This document shows, piece by piece, positions 3,170-13,768 of a DNA stretch of 13,768 nucleotides. This DNA comes from Escherichia coli (GTDB lineage: Bacteria; Pseudomonadota; Gammaproteobacteria; Enterobacterales; Enterobacteriaceae). The stretch lies in NCBI RefSeq assembly GCF_003334335.1, contig NZ_QOWQ01000061.1; one strand, 5' to 3'. The notes beneath the pieces were generated by a model, which saw nothing but the letters and a program-made list of their open reading frames with translations, made no database searches and was not told the DNA's origin. Both the position numbers and the translations under genes were made by a program. Positions within the stretch are counted from its first letter, which is position 1. Every line of letters starts with the position of its first letter.

Positions 3170-4987
3170 TCACTCCTGCTGAGACTGAATTATTCCTAGT
3201 GCGTCATAAATCAGTCTTCTGCGTAGTTTATTGTTTTTATCTGCACCATATAACATAAATATATTTTCAACTTTTTCTTCAGGTGTTCTGAGATAATGGA
3301 TAAGAAAGGTTATCATTCCAACACAATGGAATAAAGTGAATCCATCAAACAGGCTTATCAGGTTTCCTTTTTTTTCCCGTGTTGTAAGTATTTTTTCGCG
3401 GGTAAGAATATTTGCCAGTTCATGGGGGGCTGATATGTTTCTGCTGTCTATAATGTCATTTATTTTACCAAGGGCTATATCAACTTCCTGTAATAGGTTA
3501 TTTATCATAGCTGAGTGAATGTTATTGGTTTCATGTTCCTGACAGTTTATGAACTTATAAATCATTGAGTTATACAGAAATATTACTCTTCCTAATAAAT
3601 ATGTGTTTGTGTCATTTTGAAGACAGGACTCTGGGTATTCGTGATCCAGTGAAATAAGGTTAATGGACTCGCCCTGATAAGTCATAAAATAATTGATGTC
3701 ATTTAATAATGCTCGGATATTTACATGATTTTTACTGAATTTTATTTTAAATGCTATCTTTAGTATAGCAAACGCGGCAATGATAAATCCAAAAGGTAAT
3801 TTCTCATAGTTCAGTTTATTGATGGTGCGATGAACACTTTCAGTCTTTCCTGAAGTAAGTTGTCTCAAACAGTTAACAAATTCTGTATAGCCATTTAAGA
3901 CATAATGGCATGAAGAATCTTTTAAAGAGTTTTCTATGTTTTGTAATGTGACGCCGTTGTTCAATGTATAAATGTAACCGCCAAAGACAATGTTTTCAAT
4001 CTCAACGACACAATTTATTGTTTTTTGTTCAGGATAAAGATAAATATCAGAAATACTATAGTCTCGTATTGCGTCAATGGCATCCCACGATAATGCACTG
4101 TCAATTTTCAGTGTATAAAATGGTGAGTTCTCATTAGGAAAGTAATATATGTATTTGTTCAGTATATTCATTACATCTATTGGGTTGGTTAAATATAATA
4201 ACTGGCATTCATATTCTGAAACTTCTCTTTCGCTTATCAGCATTTTATATAAAGTTGCCAGGGTGCTTGTTAATGAAGTTCGTCTTTCGAAAGCCAGTAA
4301 TATAGTGAGATAATAACATGCAACCTGAACTTTATCTAAGTCAGAAATTATTTTTTCCTTGTCTTCATTACTTAAATAAAGCAGATGTTTACAGGTTTCT
4401 TTGCATGTGTTGATAGTTGCGATAAGTTTTGTTTTTCCTGGTGTACTGTTTTTGCGAATATTACGAATGAATTCATATACGCCATCAAAGATATCTTTGA
4501 AATGCGCATTCGCTGGCGTGTATCCGGATAAACATAACTTAACGTAATTTCGCAGATATGTCCTTGCAGCATGATATATATCATCCTCATTATCCGGTAT
4601 CTGAGTGAGAAAAGAATGAATATGATAGTAAAATGCCATCTCATTATCCGGGCGATATGTGTTCCTGATGTCGAGTGCGAGAATCATTGGTACAATGTCA
4701 TTAAAATATTTTTGTTTTATTATTTGATGTGTTTTGTCTGTAAAAACAGAATAGTGCATTAGCTTAACATAGAGATCTTCATATCTCCTAAATATAACTT
4801 TTCGTTGTTCTTTACTCAATACTTGTTCTTTATCAATAATGTTTATTAATTCATCAAACATGTCGCCCAGTGAATGTTGATGTGAGGAAAAATTTTTAAT
4901 ATTTCGGATGTCACGGCTATTCTGGTTTTTAGCCAGAACACCAAAACATGAAAAGACATCATACATTATAGTGATAAAATTATACAT
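3170..4987 (-). CDS. Hypothetical protein, 605 aa, no recognisable family; AT-rich orphan cargo gene
   Basis: Long uninterrupted minus-strand ORF. Strong SD (AAGGAGA) 5 nt upstream of the ATG at 4987 (minus-strand sense). Codon usage markedly more AT-rich than int or the 1083-aa gene (by eye). One predicted hydrophobic helix (KLPFGFIIAAFAILKIAFKI). I recognise no catalytic motif. Confidence 0.8.
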   Translation of the reverse strand: MYNFITIMYDVFSCFGVLAKNQNSRDIRNIKNFSSHQHSLGDMFDELINIIDKEQVLSKEQRKVIFRRYEDLYVKLMHYSVFTDKTHQIIKQKYFNDIVPMILALDIRNTYRPDNEMAFYYHIHSFLTQIPDNEDDIYHAARTYLRNYVKLCLSGYTPANAHFKDIFDGVYEFIRNIRKNSTPGKTKLIATINTCKETCKHLLYLSNEDKEKIISDLDKVQVACYYLTILLAFERRTSLTSTLATLYKMLISEREVSEYECQLLYLTNPIDVMNILNKYIYYFPNENSPFYTLKIDSALSWDAIDAIRDYSISDIYLYPEQKTINCVVEIENIVFGGYIYTLNNGVTLQNIENSLKDSSCHYVLNGYTEFVNCLRQLTSGKTESVHRTINKLNYEKLPFGFIIAAFAILKIAFKIKFSKNHVNIRALLNDINYFMTYQGESINLISLDHEYPESCLQNDTNTYLLGRVIFLYNSMIYKFINCQEHETNNIHSAMINNLLQEVDIALGKINDIIDSRNISAPHELANILTREKILTTREKKGNLISLFDGFTLFHCVGMITFLIHYLRTPEEKVENIFMLYGADKNNKLRRRLIYDALGIIQSQQE

Positions 4988-5127
4988 AACATTCTCCTTT
5001 TATTGCACTATATAAAATTTTAACATTATATCATTTTGCTTTTCTGTTAACTGGTTTTCATTTTTGAATCAATATTTTCTGAACAGGGTAATAGTACACG
5101 TATTAACAGATTATGTCAGAAGGCCCC

Positions 5128-5890: not shown

Positions 5891-5920
5891 AGGGCCTCTT
5901 TTGCTGTTTTTTTGCCATGA
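5483..5920 (+). CDS. insB: IS1-family InsB-like transposase segment; reading frame runs past the right inverted repeat
   Basis: Translation (ICELDEQWSFVENKARQQWHWYAYK...TRRIERNNLTLRTHIKRPARK...) aligns to IS1 InsB ([26 protein letters not shown]...[21 protein letters not shown]). Frame is -1 relative to insA, as in IS1. The ORF continues 30 nt beyond the IS end at 5890, so the native stop appears lost. Confidence 0.7.
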   Translation: MALICELDEQWSFVENKARQQWHWYAYKTKADGVLAYTFGPRTDETCRELPEFLKPFSAGMITRDNRSSYTREMPQDKHLVGKIFTRRIERNNLTLRTHIKRPARKTICFLRSLEIHEKPLVHLSKTHVLLTGVITRASFAVFLP

Positions 5921-6086
5921 ATGATAATGAGAATCGACAGCGATAAGGGAAAAGTAAAATAACACTAATGCTGTTGTTTTCTATCATATTGATTTTTAAT
6001 TATTTATTGTCTTTTTTCTCAACCCATTTTTTTACGCAGACAAATTTACCCGGGGAATACAAACTGTAACGACAGTTCACCACACT

Positions 6087-6395
6087 ATGGGGGATAAAAT
6101 GCCAGATCAATCCGGACACTGCAGGACTCCTTCACGCATCTTACGGATGCCTGAACTGAGCCAATTGTTAGGTATATCTCGTTCGACAATTTACGAAAAA
6201 ATGAATCCGTTATCGAAATACTACGATGCAACCTTCCCCAGGCCGGTACGTCTTGGTAGTGGTTCTGTGGGCTGGCGTTCATCAGCTATTGACGAATGGC
6301 TTACTTTACATACTGTACCTGCCAGATCAGCAGTCAAAGGTGTTAATGACGAAGTGAGACATACGCTTTCTTCAGATATGACCATGAGCAGATAA
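6087..6395 (+). CDS. alpA: AlpA-family (prophage CP4-57 regulatory protein-like) DNA-binding regulator / excisionase-like protein
   Basis: Motifs ILRMPELSQLLGISRSTIYEKMNP and YDATFPRPVRLGSGSVGWRSSAIDEWL match the AlpA helix-turn-helix family. The likely true start is the ATG at 6099, preceded by GGGGGA. Confidence 0.85.
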   Translation: MGDKMPDQSGHCRTPSRILRMPELSQLLGISRSTIYEKMNPLSKYYDATFPRPVRLGSGSVGWRSSAIDEWLTLHTVPARSAVKGVNDEVRHTLSSDMTMSR

Positions 6396-6477
6396 GTTTT
6401 TGTCATCACGTGATCACCTCAGGAGGAAAAAGAAGCATAAGAACAATTTAGCCAGAAGTTTAATTGATAAACAGAAT

Positions 6478-6830
6478 TTCCAGCATTCATTGTTGAAAGA
6501 GCAGCTATTGTCGCTATTGTAGCGGTAATTGCTGCTATAACCGAAACGTATTACGAAAAAGGAAGCATTTATGCCTTACATCAAACCGGATATGCCGTAT
6601 TCAGTATATGCATGACCATCAATGATAGGGAAGGCAATAATTAAAGCTCAATACAATAAACAAGTACCTCTGACTCTGGTTGCAATGTCAGTATTAACAG
6701 CGATGTCAATTGCCTGTCAGAATCAGGTTGACGTATGCAGTCCCGGAAATTTACGTGGGGCCGTTAATATTTACACTATGGTTCTGGAGAAAGGGAAAAG
6801 ACCGGGGGAAAGGTATTAGTGAAATAATTT
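6478..6830 (+). repeat. Direct repeat copy 1: diverged duplicate of the promoter-proximal and 5' coding region of the yfjI-like gene
   Basis: Aligns by eye over about 330 bp with 6958-7310, including the shared motif AGCAGCTATTGTCGCTATTGTAGCGG and the coding stretch CAATTGCCTGTCAGAATCAG(G/A)TTGACGTATGCAG. I estimate roughly 75-80% identity (not computed). Confidence 0.7.
6571..6819 (+). pseudogene. Degenerate duplicated 5' fragment of the yfjI-like gene
   Basis: ATG at 6571 gives MPYIKPDMPYSVYA* and then, after a 1-nt indel relative to copy 2, a second frame (6622-6819) encodes ...QVPLTLVAMSVLTAMSIACQNQVDVCSPGNLRGAVNIYT, paralogous to QAPLAMVATSALTAISIACQNQIDVCRPGNLHGPVNLYS of the intact gene. 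Confidence 0.55.
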
Positions 6831-6957
6831 CTGGAGGTATTAAGAATGAGAAATATGAATGATATTTCGTGGTGAATAATACAGTCTTCACTGAATTAAC
6901 CTTATCGGTTTATTAAACATCAGATCTACAAATGCTCTGTATTTCTCAGAGCATCAG

Positions 6958-7310
6958 GTCTGAATAGCAGCTATTTTCGCTATTGTAGCGGGATTTGCTG
7001 CTATTTTACTAACCCATTAATGAAAAGAGAGGCTTTTATGTGCTTACTTGCACCAGAAAATCCTTATCCGATATATGCACTACCACCGCTGGTGAGAAAT
7101 GCAATAATTGAAACTCAAAAAAATACACAGGCACCTTTGGCTATGGTGGCAACATCCGCATTAACAGCGATCTCAATTGCCTGTCAGAATCAGATTGACG
7201 TATGCAGACCTGGAAATTTACATGGGCCTGTTAATCTTTACTCTCTGATTCTGGCTGATTCCGGTGAAAGGAAAACGACCGTGGATAAAGTGTTTATGAA
7301 AGCATTTTAT
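6958..7310 (+). repeat. Direct repeat copy 2: the intact promoter-proximal and 5' region of the yfjI-like gene
   Basis: Partner of copy 1 at 6478-6830; this copy is continuous with the long ORF starting at 7020/7038. Confidence 0.7.
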
Positions 7311-8177
7311 CTCAGGGATGAAGCCCTGGCGGAAGAATACGCGAAACTGGTTGAGAATTACAGTACAGAAAAGGAAATATGGGAGCAAAAACAAAAAGCG
7401 CTGGAATCAAAATTTCATAAAGAGATTCGTGCCGGTAAAGATTACAAGGCAACAGAATCAGAGCTTGAAACGCATCTGAATAAACCTCCTGTTCCGCCGC
7501 AGATACGTCGAACAATTTTTAATGAGACAACGATAGAGGGAATGTTAAAATATTACTCCGATAGCAATCGCTCTTTTGCTCTTGTATCCAGTGAAGGGGG
7601 GGTAATTTTTGACAGCCGGGCCATGAGTAAACTGGGAATTATTAACACTTTGTGGGATGGAGGTTCTCTTTTCATCGACAGGAAATCATCTCCCGGAATT
7701 AATTTGAAGGAGCCAAGACTGACGATATCGGTGATGATTCAGCCTGATGTTTACCACAAAGGTTTTTGTACGCGAAAAAAAGAAATTGTGAAAACGTCAG
7801 GACATCATGCAAGGTTTTTGATGTGTCAACCAACATCAACGCAGGGGACAAGGATAATAACCGGAGATAATTATTCATCACAGTATCAGGATTTGTTTGA
7901 AGAGAGGATCAATGAGCTTATTGATGAAAGTCTGGCGATGAGTGGTGAACGACGTTGCCTTCACTTTTCTCCTCAGGCTGCCAGAATCTGGACGGATTAT
8001 TACAATGATGTGGAATCGAAGCTGGGGGGATTGGGGCCTTTAAGACATTGCCGGGAATATGCTGCTAAAAATGCAGAGTATATGGCAAGACTGGCAGGAC
8101 TTATTTACCATTCGAGCGGGGGAGATTTCCCCTTACACTGCAGAAATGGCGAGAGAATTAGCAATATGGTACGGTAA
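7020..8177 (+). CDS. yfjI-like (DUF3987-type, putative replication-associated) protein, N-terminal 385 aa; frame interrupted near the 3' end
   Basis: Long ORF in the position occupied by yfjI after alpA in CP4-57-type islands. SD-like AAGAGAGG precedes the internal ATG at 7038, the more likely start. The reading frame continues in another frame (8059-8463) after a G5 tract. DUF3987 assignment is from genomic context and memory, not a search. Confidence 0.7.
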   Translation: MKREAFMCLLAPENPYPIYALPPLVRNAIIETQKNTQAPLAMVATSALTAISIACQNQIDVCRPGNLHGPVNLYSLILADSGERKTTVDKVFMKAFYLRDEALAEEYAKLVENYSTEKEIWEQKQKALESKFHKEIRAGKDYKATESELETHLNKPPVPPQIRRTIFNETTIEGMLKYYSDSNRSFALVSSEGGVIFDSRAMSKLGIINTLWDGGSLFIDRKSSPGINLKEPRLTISVMIQPDVYHKGFCTRKKEIVKTSGHHARFLMCQPTSTQGTRIITGDNYSSQYQDLFEERINELIDESLAMSGERRCLHFSPQAARIWTDYYNDVESKLGGLGPLRHCREYAAKNAEYMARLAGLIYHSSGGDFPLHCRNGERISNMVR

Positions 8178-8463
8178 TGAGTATGTGCGGTTGTCTAATC
8201 CGTTAACTTTTGACAACTCTGCCCTGACCGTACCTGTGCGACTCATTCCAGAGGAGCTTGAACTTTTCAACTGGATAAAAAGCTATTGTATTGAGAAGGG
8301 GATCCTCTGTATGAAAAAAAATGACATTTTACAGCGTGGTCCGAACCGTTTCCGGAAAAAGGATAAAATCAACTGGTTACTGGATTTACTGTATGAACAA
8401 AACAGAGTTGTACCGGTTATTGAGGGAAAAACGTTGTGTGTCGCACCTAACTTTGACCTCTGA
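8059..8463 (+). CDS. C-terminal segment of the yfjI-like protein in a shifted frame
   Basis: Overlaps the previous ORF by 119 nt in a different frame; no independent RBS. Combined length (about 480 aa) is what I expect for a yfjI-family protein. Confidence 0.55.
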   Translation: MLLKMQSIWQDWQDLFTIRAGEISPYTAEMARELAIWYGNEYVRLSNPLTFDNSALTVPVRLIPEELELFNWIKSYCIEKGILCMKKNDILQRGPNRFRKKDKINWLLDLLYEQNRVVPVIEGKTLCVAPNFDL

Positions 8464-8486
8464 ACGACTTAATCGTTGAGTTCATA

Positions 8487-8517
8487 TAGTCTCCTCTGCT
8501 ACTTGCGGAGGAGACTA
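8487..8517 (+). terminator. Perfect 10-bp stem-loop immediately downstream of the yfjI-like gene; possible terminator or protein-binding hairpin
   Basis: TAGTCTCCTC (8487-8496) pairs with GAGGAGACTA (8508-8517), 11-nt loop. Downstream sequence is only moderately T-rich, so it is not a canonical intrinsic terminator. Confidence 0.35.
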
Positions 8518-8518
8518 A

Positions 8519-9283
8519 TGTCTTTACCATGTCAGCGTTGTATTAGAAAACTCTGGTACAGGTCAGTCAGTAAATATAACTGGTGTAACCACTATTTACT
8601 ATTGGATAGAGTGTTGCTCAGGATATTGTCGGCTTTAGTCTGAGGTGAGGTGGGGCCTTCATTGTTTTCGTGTTCAATAAATAATTTAGGTTAATTAGTA
8701 TTATTAGTGGAAGTTATGTGATCTGTTATGTTGTCTTGTACGCACTTAACACTGGTTACGTACCGGAACACTATTAGAGTATGTTATGGCTCTGTTACAG
8801 TTTATAGGTATGAAAAAATATAATCTTTCCTGTATGAAATAATATTCTTATGGTGTGTGGGGTATGGTCTGTATACCATCATTTTTATGGTGAAGTTAAA
8901 TATCTGTAGAGGCCTTAAGCTGGGTCGCTGTTTTTACTTAATGGTACAGAAGTATTAATAGCGGTGTTGCCTGTGGCTACCCGATACTGGCTTTTGTGAA
9001 TGTCAGATTACTTCCTGTAAGTGATTGAATGGTACTTCCTTAAACTCAATTCTATGAGGTGTGTTTTTACCATTGTAATTCGTACTGGTCCTCAGTTTAA
9101 GTGAGTCTTACTGTACTCTGAAATATTACCTCTTTGGAGTAATGAGGTAATACGAAACAGTTTTATCAGGTTGTCTGTGCTGCTGGTTACCTCGTTTATT
9201 AATGCCGCGGTACGGCGTTTCTGTACTCTCAGTATTTATGTAATTCCACCTTCCTGTAACTTTTATAAAGTAAGGACTATAAA
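8519..9283. other. ORF-free AT-rich region with short repeated motifs and hairpins; candidate replication origin / regulatory region
   Basis: No ORF of 60 aa or more in any frame across about 820 bp. Repeated TTCCTGTA (8826, 9012, 9250), CTGTACTCT (9111, 9221), TGTTATG (8715, 8725, 8782). Inverted repeat TATTACCTC/GAGGTAATA (9124-9151). Sits directly upstream of the HUH Rep-like gene. Confidence 0.3.
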
Positions 9284-9847
9284 ATGTATAATGCTAATCC
9301 CAATTACGAAATGGACTTCATGATTCTGAAAGACGTGAATGAACACATGGAAGGTCTGTTTCAACGTTTTTCTAAACTGTTACCTTTCAGAATTGATTTT
9401 GCCTACAGGAAAGACACGCCCAGTTTTGGTCATTCCTGTAGGCACAGTATGTGTATTGAAATGCACCGCTTACTTAGTGAAACCCAAACGATGCTGGCGG
9501 GATATTACTGGGTAATGGAATATACGTCAAACAAGGGACTTCATATTCATTTTATCGGCTACTTGGATGGGCAACGTCACAAGAAATTTTATCGGATATC
9601 CAGGCAACTGGGAGATATCTGGAGTCGGATCACGGAAGGGGAGGGTTATTTTCACCTGTGCAGTACTAAAGACAAATACCCGGTGCGTATCGATCACGTG
9701 ATTCACTATAGTGATAAGTCTGCGGTAGACGGTTTACGTTACGCCCTTAGCTACCTGGCTAAACAGGAGCAGAAAGAACACGGTATTATTCTGATGCGTA
9801 GCAGACTTCCCGAAAAAAGTAACCGCGGCCGACCACGACACAACTGA
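9284..9847 (+). CDS. YagK/YfjJ (inovirus Gp2)-family protein with HUH-type motifs; putative rolling-circle Rep-like initiator
   Basis: 187-aa ORF with an HUH-like motif LHIHFIGY and a downstream tyrosine motif YALSYLAK (YxxK-like). Occupies the position of yfjJ in CP4-57-like islands. Shorter than I would expect for this family. Confidence 0.65.
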   Translation: MYNANPNYEMDFMILKDVNEHMEGLFQRFSKLLPFRIDFAYRKDTPSFGHSCRHSMCIEMHRLLSETQTMLAGYYWVMEYTSNKGLHIHFIGYLDGQRHKKFYRISRQLGDIWSRITEGEGYFHLCSTKDKYPVRIDHVIHYSDKSAVDGLRYALSYLAKQEQKEHGIILMRSRLPEKSNRGRPRHN

Positions 9848-10355
9848 ATTACAGCTGTATTAGAATTAAGTTTCCGTAAGTTGTTGGGAGGTGCTTGAGT
9901 TAATAGGCAGTAGAGGGGGCGCTGTAATCAGTGTAGGGGACCCGAATTTCTGCTGTGGTGCTTCAGTGGTTCGGATACAGGTAACGAATATGGTTCATAA
10001 ATCTGACAGTGATGAATTAGCAGCACTGAGGGAAGACATCACTTGAAGCTTATGGGATTGAATGGCGACGTAAACCGCAGAGTCCTGTGCAGTGCGTTTC
10101 CGTATTATCCACGGATGAGAAAGTTGCGTTATTTCGTCGGTTTTTTCGTGGGCGTGGTGATGTATGGGGCCTTCGATGGGAAAGCAAAACCAGCGGCAAA
10201 TCAGGGTACTTGCGGGCCTGTGCTAACGAATGGCAGCCGGGAATAGCGGTAAACTCCGGATAAAATGTGGGGACTGCGCTCACCGTCAGTTGATCCCTGT
10301 ATCTGATCTCATCATCTACCACTACACGGTTTAACGGGGCCGCGTCATCTCGGCG

Positions 10356-10385
10356 TTGCCCGATAAATTCTTTTCTACGTATAAT
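10356..10385 (+). promoter_or_regulatory. Candidate sigma70-like promoter for the 1083-aa gene
   Basis: -35-like TTGCCC (10356-10361), 18-bp spacer, perfect -10 TATAAT (10380-10385), about 110 bp upstream of the start codon. Sequence match only. Confidence 0.3.
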
Positions 10386-10497
10386 AACCAGAATGAACGT
10401 GTAAAACACCATAGTATTCAGAACTATAAACATCGAAACTTGCCATATTGACCAGAATAAATGACCTTATTTTTACTGAAATTTAAGGAGAACACCG

Positions 10498-13768
<3,271 letters not shown>

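Follow-up and report, generated by a model that had tools for sequence, protein, structure and literature searches.

What is an incomplete second copy of the start of a yfjI-like gene doing between that gene and the alpA-like gene upstream of it? The question arises from a 13,768-nt stretch of Escherichia coli DNA (contig NZ_QOWQ01000061.1 of assembly GCF_003334335.1), referred to here as the window. An earlier note on this DNA had described a partial tandem duplication of the yfjI regulatory and 5′ coding region, and suggested that it could titrate a regulator such as AlpA or simply record an old rearrangement. We call the upstream copy U and the downstream copy D. The relevant features are as follows:

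6099..6395, + strand: alpA-like HTH gene of the Phage_AlpA type (98 aa), immediately upstream of the repeat (PGAP; same protein in loci L001 and L002; Pfam PF05930 on the identical arrangement in L012; PHROG excisionase/regulator matches)
6478..6570, + strand: U leader, aligned with the D leader at 75% identity; Shine-Dalgarno-like AAGGAAG before the ATG at 6571
6500..6536, + strand: U stem-loop/palindrome (RNA fold -19 kcal/mol, z -2.8); its left arm is the 9-mer tandem GCTATTGTC GCTATTGTA at 6504-6521
6571..6830, + strand: U pseudo-coding region, a remnant of yfjI codons 1 to ~91, assigned from a TGA, a 10-bp deletion, dN/dS and lineage-specific lesions
6831..6944, + strand: unique spacer, with GGAGG and a 9-codon ORF at 6846-6875 (MRNMNDISW) and the left part of an 8-bp hairpin (6932-6954)
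6945..7037, + strand: D leader of the live yfjI, placed by alignment; 95.5% identical (first codons included) to the leader of the single-copy island L005
6962..7006, + strand: D stem-loop/palindrome (AATAGCAGCTATTTTCGCTATTGTAGCGGGATTTGCTGCTATT), then TTAC (RNA fold -24.6 kcal/mol, z -4.4, reached by 0/200 shuffles; flagged terminator-like)
7038..8463, + strand: yfjI-like gene (DUF3987, helicase-like; PGAP 'YfjI family protein', 477 aa in L001; PHROG 2373 DNA helicase, E 1.4e-62)
9284..9847, + strand: Gp2/YfjJ-like gene with HIH and YALSYLAK motifs, third member of the conserved alpA-yfjI-yfjJ module

Self-BLAST of the window returned one significant repeat pair, 6497-6830 (U) against 6963-7307 (D), with 74% identity over 346 columns including 13 gap columns. 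This collinear similarity is far above chance (E 2.4e-56). A repeat search resolved it into two ungapped blocks, 203 nt at 78% and 74 nt at 74%, offset by 466-467 nt, and MAFFT followed weak similarity back to ~6478/6945. The repeat is confirmed, and the two diverged copies of about 330 bp, said to lie about 130 bp apart, are borne out. The duplication is partial, as had been claimed, but "tandem" does not strictly apply since the copies do not abut: unique sequence (6831-6944/6957, ~115-127 nt) separates them. Each copy has a leader stem-loop of 40 nt, followed by a ribosome-binding site and by the first ~91 yfjI codons (7038-7307 in D), which encode the start of a DUF3987, helicase-like protein. 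Identity between U and D is 75% in the leader, 86% in the stem-loop and 77% in the coding part.

The two copies have fared very differently as genes. Homology of U to yfjI stops at 6830, and U lacks 10 bp present in D (GCTGATTCCG; deletion after 6786). The upstream copy had been read as a fragment disrupted by an indel, which is correct, but a nonsense codon had been missed: an in-frame TGA at 6613-6615, codon 15 after the ATG at 6571. What is left is a residual ORF of 65 aa (6622-6819) that PGAP names 'DUF3987 domain-containing protein'. The lesions differ by lineage. The window has the TGA at codon 15 and the 10-bp deletion, L003 a TGA at codon 76, L004 indels of +1 and -12, and L012 other changes, so that U ORF lengths and frames vary. 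Values of dN/dS are 0.79-1.54 among U copies against 0.20-0.55 among D copies. U is a pseudogene evolving neutrally and D is under purifying selection. D is joined to yfjI, as the earlier note held, but the gene is not full here: an 8-bp deletion near 8119 shifts the frame, which is lost after codon 360, and intact relatives have 477 aa.

In our view the locus probably preserves, in fossil form, a single old partial duplication that took place where alpA meets yfjI in a CP4-57-like integrative island. What was duplicated would have been the yfjI leader, with its stem-loop and ribosome-binding site, together with the first ~91 codons. D would have stayed joined to yfjI and been kept by purifying selection; U, severed at codon ~91 and with an unrelated spacer of 127 bp behind it, would have been a pseudogene ever since, decaying neutrally and differently in each lineage. 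The two-copy arrangement would have spread with the island and become the majority form of the module in E. coli, with U and D still recombining and the 9-mer of the U stem-loop slipping between two and four copies. The proposal that the duplication records an old rearrangement is supported in this respect. U/D is a commonplace relic, not a regulatory device peculiar to one strain.

The distribution of U bears this out. U and its 127-bp spacer are present in 1338 of 5426 complete E. coli genomes, about 95% of the ~1400 that carry this alpA-yfjI module; carriers include O157:H7, ATCC 25922 and Nissle 1917. They belong to several diverged lineages and lie at two chromosomal sites, beside ycdU/dgcT or thrW, behind two unrelated alpA types of 98 or 75 aa. 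Searched on its own, the spacer turns up in 1338 E. coli genomes, just as U does, with a median of one site in each, and in E. coli it occurs only together with U. The 3′ end of the U homology (GTGAAATAATT) and the spacer are common to the window, L003, L004 and L012. All carriers share the same breakpoint, so the duplication happened once. The idea that it might be specific to this strain is not supported. In a neighbour-joining tree the U copies form one clade with longer branches, whose sister contains D and the single-copy L005, both lying inside the K-12/Yersinia outgroup. When one genome per species was scanned with YfjI, only two loci came back, in Yersinia rohdei and Citrobacter, both distant (39% identity) and neither with two copies.

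The two copies have also exchanged sequence. U/D mosaics were found (P0008/L015, P0013 and P0002), the U copy of L015 is placed in the D clade, and some U copies have a D-like 5′ half. These are products of gene conversion between U and D and, as the copies are still ~75-86% alike, recombination between them continues. The pair shows ongoing gene conversion between a live gene and a relic, and the relic itself cleanly marks the common descent of an island module that is widespread.

The origin of the spacer is less straightforward. No significant local alignment was found to the alpA 3′ ends of both types, to yfjI past codon 91 or at its 3′ end, to the K-12 intergenic region or to other sequence in the loci; the best alignment, to the alpA 3′ end of L003, had p ~0.03 uncorrected. 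As the copies of a strict tandem would abut, a 127-bp spacer without detectable source means that the event was more complex or that the source has since been lost. It also leaves some room for an alternative in which U is the remnant of a yfjI allele from another, related island, and in which an exchange, illegitimate or homologous (a deletion between islands integrated in tandem, for instance), placed the foreign spacer, the D leader and yfjI behind it. A spacer unrelated to anything nearby would fit such a junction, as would the clearly mosaic nature of the region: two alpA types precede the same U and, between the window and L012, the U leader differs by only 3% and the spacer by 28%. The U-D dS of ~0.33-0.39, far above divergence among D copies, points the same way. 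However, U-D dN/dS is 0.65-0.76, as expected of one neutral and one constrained branch, whereas two alleles that had both once worked would give ~0.2-0.3. The fixed changes on the U branch are spread evenly over codon positions 1, 2 and 3 (3/3/4), and the tree places U beside D as its sister clade inside the window-type lineage. Nor was a full-length U-type protein found in a collection of 5.8 billion proteins: the 29 matches to a reconstructed U peptide are all of 52-94 aa, although this is a weak negative, as only 30 candidates were listed and D-type YfjI was absent among them. Taken together these observations make the foreign-allele origin unlikely.

Under the preferred reading of a decayed duplicate, U probably has little or no function apart from lengthening the stretch between alpA and yfjI by ~470 nt of leader, most of it untranslated, and supplying a spare stem-loop there. 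It is a dead gene fragment and, as a duplication, of minor importance. It does explain the small 'DUF3987 domain-containing protein' or 'hypothetical protein' calls that precede yfjI in more than 1000 E. coli genomes, and these can be marked as pseudogene remnants.

The stem-loop repeated in both leaders is another matter. The earlier note had described a motif kept in both copies: GCTATTGTCGCTATTGTAGCGG is indeed exact in U at 6504, but D has GCTATTTTCGCTATTGTAGCGG at 6970, with one mismatch. Its internal GCTATTGT tandem is real, although it does not stand alone as a repeat but makes up the left arm of a stem-loop/palindrome. The 9-mer GCTATTGTC is present in U in two copies in the window, three in L008 and four in L007. 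Among E. coli genomes, match lengths of 530 and 539 instead of 521 reflect extra 9-mer copies, and the 3- and 4-copy variants are common. The palindrome is conserved family-wide upstream of yfjI: it precedes every yfjI examined, including those of K-12 CP4-57, Yersinia rohdei, Citrobacter, L021, L022 and L033/36/37/42/44, and is kept where the rest of the alpA-yfjI intergenic region is not alignable. In L022 it is perfect over 36 nt and centred on ATTAAT. In the K-12-type versions the right arm, TTAATAGCGGAATAGC, is nearly invariant and the left arm is variable; their centre, ATTAATAGCGG, is conserved, and window-type versions have TTGTAGCGG or TTATAGCGG there. A degenerate palindrome pattern had 34 matches in viral contigs, about the chance number by a hand estimate; eight were upstream of a yfjI homologue and none in other context. 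No Rfam match was obtained in 6000-7400 at E up to 1. This strongly conserved and undescribed element of the yfjI leader thus extends over CP4-57-like islands from E. coli K-12 to Yersinia, and offers a concrete target for finding out how such islands control or replicate their yfjI-yfjJ module.

Does it act as RNA or as DNA? Across 13 distinct versions, pairing holds in 85% of cells, and at 7 of the 19 pairs both sides have changed, a level reached by 3 of 500 shuffles, bearing in mind that the structure was derived from the same sequences and that a symmetric DNA site would behave alike. Symmetric operators also show such "compensatory" changes. U.G pairs occur on the + strand, and in 12 of 12 window-type versions the + strand folds with a stability equal to or greater than that of the - strand; K-12-type versions fold better on the - strand, and strand asymmetry is not decisive. 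Their almost invariant right arm beside a variable left arm likewise makes an RNA-level reading less secure. The stem-loops have changed less than the sequence around them (one-sided Fisher p 0.002-0.4, over comparisons that are not independent). The U stem-loop, for its part, is somewhat better conserved than the U pseudo-coding part, which could mean residual function and not gene conversion. An intrinsic terminator would fit only the D-type tail and not the whole family: the versions in U, K-12, Yersinia, L021 and L022 are without a U tract. We tentatively infer a nucleic-acid stem-loop that belongs to yfjI, most likely situated in its mRNA leader, and that may act on expression of the replication-type genes yfjI and yfjJ.

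A role at the DNA level is a doubtful alternative. The palindrome could be an origin, nick or loading site for the YfjI helicase-like and Gp2/YfjJ-like HUH proteins of the island, with the 9-mers resembling iterons, in which case the duplication would have created two tandem origin-like sites. The palindrome always accompanies yfjI and the Gp2-like gene and tracks their lineage, but physical linkage to yfjI is enough to explain this co-inheritance. The proteins themselves would suit such a role: YfjI matches a phage DNA helicase family, and the Gp2-like protein has HUH (HIH; LHIHF) and YxxxYxxK (YALSYLAK) motifs together with weak Pfam REP_ORF2-G2P matches (i-E 0.0012 here, 1.4e-6 for K-12 YfjJ). 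The perfect L022 palindrome and the nearly invariant K-12-type right arm would also be in keeping with such a site, although the + strand G.U pairs fit RNA as well. In addition, TTAATAG(C/T)GG resembles CTTTAATAGTGGACTC, the M13 origin sequence at which gpII nicks. As in HUH rolling-circle origins such as that of M13 gpII, a hairpin adjoins genes for HUH-motif and helicase-like proteins. In contrast, M13 gpII belongs to Phage_CRI and G2P_X_C, not to YagK/YfjJ or REP_ORF2-G2P, the resemblance is weak in the copies of the window, where TTGTAGCGG or TTATAGCGG is found instead, and the likeness may be due to chance; we retain it only as a weak lead. Were the element an origin of the alpA-yfjI-yfjJ class of enterobacterial islands, most E. 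coli copies of the module would carry two tandem origin-like sites, one with a variable number of 9-mers, and this could influence how the excised element initiates or terminates replication, or its copy number.

That the repeats are a duplicated promoter-operator bound by AlpA, two copies of which would titrate AlpA or provide two-step control of yfjI, is very unlikely. The element does lie directly downstream of alpA in every island, and in Pseudomonas aeruginosa AlpA binds promoter DNA (PMC7969949). Here, however, the palindrome does not change with AlpA. Those of K-12 and of Yersinia/Citrobacter are nearly the same, but only 28 residues of the corresponding AlpA proteins can be aligned, at 32%; the palindrome of the window recurs in L005, whose AlpA is only 25% identical to that of the window. 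Since the palindrome follows the yfjI lineage and not the alpA type, an AlpA operator, and with it the suggested titration, is not supported. The P. aeruginosa binding element GGGACG-N5-GGTA (motif taken from PMC7969949) is absent from 5900-7400 with up to two mismatches. A sigma-70-like match, TTGAAA-16-TATTGT (6493-6520), overlaps the U palindrome, but promoter-like matches are at chance level (6 found, 4.3 expected) with none at D, and the common 3- and 4-copy variants of the 9-mer would destroy this match and alter the geometry of any promoter or operator in U. In the Vibrio PICMI satellites, moreover, AlpA left transcription of satellite genes unaltered and resembles the excisionase TorI (PMC10803314). 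Some other factor could act through the palindrome. The alpA-yfjI region of the window contains no LexA box, and LexA-like boxes were seen only behind the 75-aa alpA of other lineages.

The P. aeruginosa system also involves antitermination, with a binding element in the promoter and an intrinsic terminator before the first gene (PMC7969949, PMC9371919). Likewise, the present locus has an AlpA-family gene and a stable hairpin between the likely promoter region and the first gene, and in D the hairpin is followed by TATTTTAC and was flagged terminator-like. It differs in having no binding element, in the missing U tract of U and of the K-12, Yersinia, L021 and L022 hairpins, and in an element that does not co-vary with AlpA type.

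Finally, it is extremely unlikely that U and the spacer form a functional leader, acting either through a short peptide encoded by the residual U ORF or by the 9-codon ORF, or as a phase-variable control set by 9-mer copy number: the 9-codon ORF and its GGAGG are kept in the window, L003, L004, L015 and L017 with only synonymous (AAT->AAC) or stop-to-stop (TGA->TAA) changes, and 9-mer copy number does vary among strains, but L012 has neither the GGAGG nor the ATG of the small ORF, the U ORFs are unequal in length and frame among lineages, a 9-nt unit repeated 2-4 times is not typical of contingency repeats, and, between the window and L012, the spacer (28% different) has diverged at a rate close to those of the U pseudo-coding region (20%) and the D leader (24%).

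As a fossil duplication in an island, the locus can be set beside several known systems. The K-12 cryptic prophage CP4-57 has the same order of integrase, alpA, yfjI (DUF3987) and a YfjJ/Gp2-like gene, and a homologous palindrome between alpA and yfjI. In contrast to the window it has a single copy, without the U fragment or spacer; its YfjI shares only 41% identity, the Gp2-like proteins can hardly be aligned, and its palindrome, GCTATTTCCGCCATTAATAGCGGAATAGC, is without the 8-bp outer extension. Partial duplications and pseudogene relics of other prophages and islands share the direct repeat of a 5′ end, the truncation of one copy, relaxed selection and gene conversion; here, however, a 127-bp spacer lies between the copies and, for something without a function, the relic is unusually old and widely distributed. 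Phage satellites built on an int-alpA-DUF3987 primase core (PICMI, P4-like; PMC10803314, PMC10085698) resemble this island in their conserved core of integrase, AlpA and DUF3987 protein, behind which lies variable cargo of a defence type. No psu/sid/delta, capsid-remodelling or Fis gene was seen here, and the likeness to satellites is one of gene content. The cargo of the window is a PglW/MAD6-like kinase, and that of L001 a TOTE primase.

The repeat that the earlier note had described in the 5′ region of the yfjI-like gene is real and is the sole significant internal repeat of the window. In a self-BLAST, 6497–6830 (upstream copy, U) matched 6963–7307 (downstream copy, D, joined to the yfjI-like gene) at 74% identity over 346 columns, 13 of them gap columns (E 2.4e-56). 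Without gaps, a repeat search recovered a 203-nt block at 78% identity and a 74-nt block at 74%, the copies lying 466–467 nt apart, and MAFFT extended weaker similarity back to about 6478/6945. Unique sequence of about 115–127 nt lies between the copies. The leaders of U and D are 75% identical, their stem-loops 86% and their coding parts, of about 91 codons each, 77%. Gene identities were read from annotated E. coli genomes.

Features of the island and of the two repeat copies
1781–2983: tyrosine integrase
After the integrase, on the opposite strand: hypothetical gene, 605 aa
5483–5920: IS1 transposase remnant between the 605-aa gene and alpA (PGAP: frameshifted, internal stop)
6099–6395: AlpA-family HTH gene, 98 aa
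6500–6536: stem-loop/palindrome of about 40 nt in the U leader
6571: ATG of U, with ribosome-binding site
6831–6944/6957: spacer
6846–6875: nine-codon ORF MRNMNDISW in the spacer, GGAGG 8 nt upstream
6962–7006: stem-loop/palindrome of about 40 nt in the D leader
7038: ATG of D, with ribosome-binding site
Downstream of the U fragment: 'YfjI family protein', 477 aa in annotated relatives
9284–9847: 'inovirus-type Gp2 protein', then variable cargo

In the window, U carries a TGA at codon 15 (6613–6615), lacks 10 bp after 6786 and loses its similarity to D at 6830, and so cannot encode the protein. The disabling lesions differ from lineage to lineage: next to the TGA and 10-bp deletion of the window there are a TGA at codon 76 in L003 (one of the comparison loci from other genomes, designated L), +1 and −12 indels in L004 and ORFs of 52–94 aa in other variants. 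Nei-Gojobori dN/dS was 0.79–1.54 for U against U, 0.20–0.55 for D against D and 0.65–0.76 for U against D. The last range is what is expected of one neutral and one constrained branch, and about 0.2–0.3 would be expected if two alleles had diverged as working genes. Changes fixed on the U stem branch are spread 3/3/4 over codon positions 1/2/3. Neighbour joining groups the U copies, which have the longer branches, in a single clade whose sister comprises the D copies and the single-copy locus L005; both clades lie inside the K-12/Yersinia outgroup. A shallow protein search recovered no full-length U-type protein, the reconstructed U peptide matching short fragments only. Taken together, the lesions, dN/dS, tree and protein search indicate that U became a pseudogene in the duplication or shortly afterwards and has been drifting ever since. 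On the same evidence, the duplication is younger than the split from K-12-type yfjI and older than the spread of the window-type lineages.

The duplication is not confined to one strain. U plus spacer, used as query (matches counted at ≥ 80% query coverage), matched 1338 of 5426 complete E. coli genomes, including O157:H7 strains, ATCC 25922 and Nissle 1917; the spacer alone likewise matched 1338, the median number of sites per genome being one. About 1400 genomes have the alpA-yfjI-yfjJ module at all, so that roughly 95% carry the two-copy form. This form occurs in several diverged lineages, U being 100–96% identical to that of the window in some, about 86% in L003 (strain F11), about 79% in L004 and still lower in L012. 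It is found at two sites, adjoining ycdU/dgcT and adjoining thrW, and behind two AlpA proteins of 98 and 75 aa which are 25% identical. All lineages have the same homology end (…GTGAAATAATT) followed by a homologous spacer, which indicates that the duplication happened once. The suggestion of an old rearrangement is supported. In the single-copy islands L005 and L035 the copy is D-type (95.5% identical to D). The feature belongs to a known kind: a pseudogene left behind by a partial duplication, in this case a widespread one; the U fragment is already flagged by annotation pipelines (PGAP: 'DUF3987 domain-containing protein' or 'hypothetical protein'), and a literature search found no published description of this duplication. 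The IS1 remnant is common to the window, L001, L002, L007, L008 and L018 and is absent at the corresponding position in L012; L003–L005 are without IS1 there and have the 75-aa alpA.

Some U copies are U/D mosaics. In that of L015 (peptide variant P0008), which is placed in the D clade, the leader and 5′ half are of the D kind (like L005) and the 3′ end is U-type; P0013 and P0002 are further mosaics. Position 7202 and its U counterpart are alike within a locus (A/A in the window, G/G in L003). Such mosaics and shared variants are the product of gene conversion, or of recombination, between U and D. The 9-mer GCTATTGTC of the left arm of the U stem-loop is present in two copies in the window, three in L008 and four in L007 and L018. 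Its expansions are common: in an evenly spaced sample of 40 U-plus-spacer matches, two were 530 nt and four 539 nt long, against the usual 521.

The spacer is the one feature unexplained by simple tandem duplication. Local alignment of the spacer against the 3′ ends of both alpA types, yfjI and the K-12 intergenic region gave nothing significant, and it is possibly a remnant of sequence upstream of the leader in the ancestor. Five lineages retain its nine-codon ORF, all changes there being synonymous or from one stop codon to another; in L012 both GGAGG and ATG are lost, and divergence from the window in the spacer (28%) is similar to that in the U pseudo-coding region (20%) and the D leader (24%). 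We have treated the spacer as non-functional filler.

Of all parts of the locus, only the conserved palindrome of the yfjI leader may be worth experimental work. Its left arm is the motif singled out in the earlier note, exact at 6504 in U and with one mismatch at 6970 in D, and the palindrome is family-wide in alpA-yfjI intergenic regions. It reads CTGCTATTTCCGCCATTAATAGCGGAATAGCC in K-12 CP4-57, TTGCTATTTCCACTATTAATAGCGGAATAGCAA in Yersinia rohdei and Citrobacter sp. (whose YfjI shares 39% identity with that of the window type), TTGCTATTTCCGCTACTAATAGCGGAATAGCC in L021 and GTCGCTATTTCCGCTATTAATAGCGGAAATAGCGAC in L022 (perfect, 36 nt); the remainder of these regions is not alignable. In a pattern scan of viral contigs it occurred only upstream of yfjI homologues, besides unrelated matches at about the chance estimate.

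Several observations suggest that the palindrome is best read as a cis-acting stem-loop in the yfjI leader. The RNA folds at −24.6 kcal/mol (z −4.4) for the D hairpin and −19 kcal/mol (z −2.8) for that of U. Among 13 distinct versions, 85% of cells pair, a level equalled by 3 of 500 shuffles and much lower in slid controls, and 7 of 19 pairs have changed on both sides (for example GCTATT/AATAGC to GCAATT/AATTGC in L015). The stem is extended by complementary sequences unrelated between lineages (ATAGCAGC/GCTGCTAT in the window, GTC/GAC in L022). U·G pairs lie on the plus strand, which folds at least as stably as the minus strand in 12 of 12 window-type versions; these properties would favour plus-strand RNA or single-strand structure. 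In the K-12 version it is the minus strand that folds better, and the right arm of this type is almost invariant while the left is variable. Both stem-loops, that of the dead U included, change less than their surroundings (Fisher p 0.002–0.4, the comparisons not being independent), which may be due to gene conversion or to some remaining function.

The main novel alternative is a DNA-level origin or nick site for the Gp2-like protein, which has an HUH-like motif, LHIHF (HIH), and a YxxxYxxK motif, YALSYLAK, and for the helicase-like YfjI (phage DNA-helicase family PHROG 2373, E 1.4e-62). TTAATAG(C/T)GG resembles the M13 origin core, a likeness which loses weight because M13 gpII belongs to Pfam families other than that of YfjJ. 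K-12 YfjJ matches YagK_YfjJ_C at 1e-63; Pfam matches of the Gp2-like protein are marginal (REP_ORF2-G2P, i-E 0.0012; YagK_YfjJ_C, 0.28), and its alignment with K-12 YfjJ spans no more than 18 residues surrounding the HUH motif. The alpA-yfjI-yfjJ core of the K-12 cryptic prophage CP4-57 corresponds to the module of the window, and satellites such as PICMI likewise have a core of integrase, AlpA and DUF3987 protein (PMC10803314).

The evidence supports neither an AlpA operator nor, in consequence, the proposed titration of AlpA by a second copy. It is with the yfjI/Gp2 lineage, not with the alpA type, that the palindrome type varies: one palindrome is common to K-12 and Yersinia, whose YfjI proteins are 64% identical and whose AlpA proteins align over only 28 residues, and another to the window and L005, with YfjI about 95% and AlpA only 25% identical. 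The P. aeruginosa-type AlpA binding element (PMC7969949) is absent from the alpA-yfjI region of the window, and the AlpA of PICMI satellites behaves as a factor for excision, not for transcription (PMC10803314). A family-wide intrinsic terminator was rejected since a T-rich tail follows the D-type hairpin alone.

A LexA-box-like sequence (AACTGTTTGTATTTTCAGTC or AACTGTCTGTATTTTCAGTA, CTGT-N8-xCAG) directly follows the stop codon of the 75-aa alpA (L005, 4980–5000; L015, about 2905–2925; L003 and L006, about 4968–4990) and is absent behind the 98-aa alpA of the window; the D leader retains only CTGTATTTCTCAG of it, inside an 8-bp hairpin (6932–6954).

The continuity of D with the full gene, as described in the earlier note, is true of relatives but not strictly of the window, where yfjI is broken: 8 bp of L001 (TGAAGAGG) are absent near 8119, so that the reading frame is lost beyond codon 360. 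In L002, otherwise 99.9% identical, an IS421 insertion lies 13 bp further along, with target duplication GGGGAGATTTCCC (window 8100–8135, L001 8715–8735, L002 junctions about 8740 and 10078). Among 5426 complete E. coli genomes this deletion does not occur; it resembles an IS-associated deletion that took place in a near relative of L002.

The interval 8464–9283, which separates yfjI from the Gp2-like gene, comprises about 820 nt without a long ORF, with long blocks kept across six lineages, a 13-bp inverted repeat (12/13 complementary) directly after the yfjI stop (8487–8517), a variable insert near 8737 and, at 8953–8964, TATTAATAGCGG, similar to the central part of the K-12-type palindrome. 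The interval has no Rfam match and may specify a non-coding RNA or serve as an origin. Between ycdU (428–1414) and the integrase ARAGORN found no tRNA gene; L002 is annotated with an RtT-like sRNA there, and Rfam gave weak sub-threshold matches only (MicC, Thr leader) at 1558–1662 on the minus strand. The window diverges after 10319 from L001 and L002, which have a TOTE-system primase there; 10320–13768 is variable defence-type cargo, with a 1083-aa ORF (10498–13749) whose PglW/MAD6-like protein-kinase matches are well below curated cut-offs.
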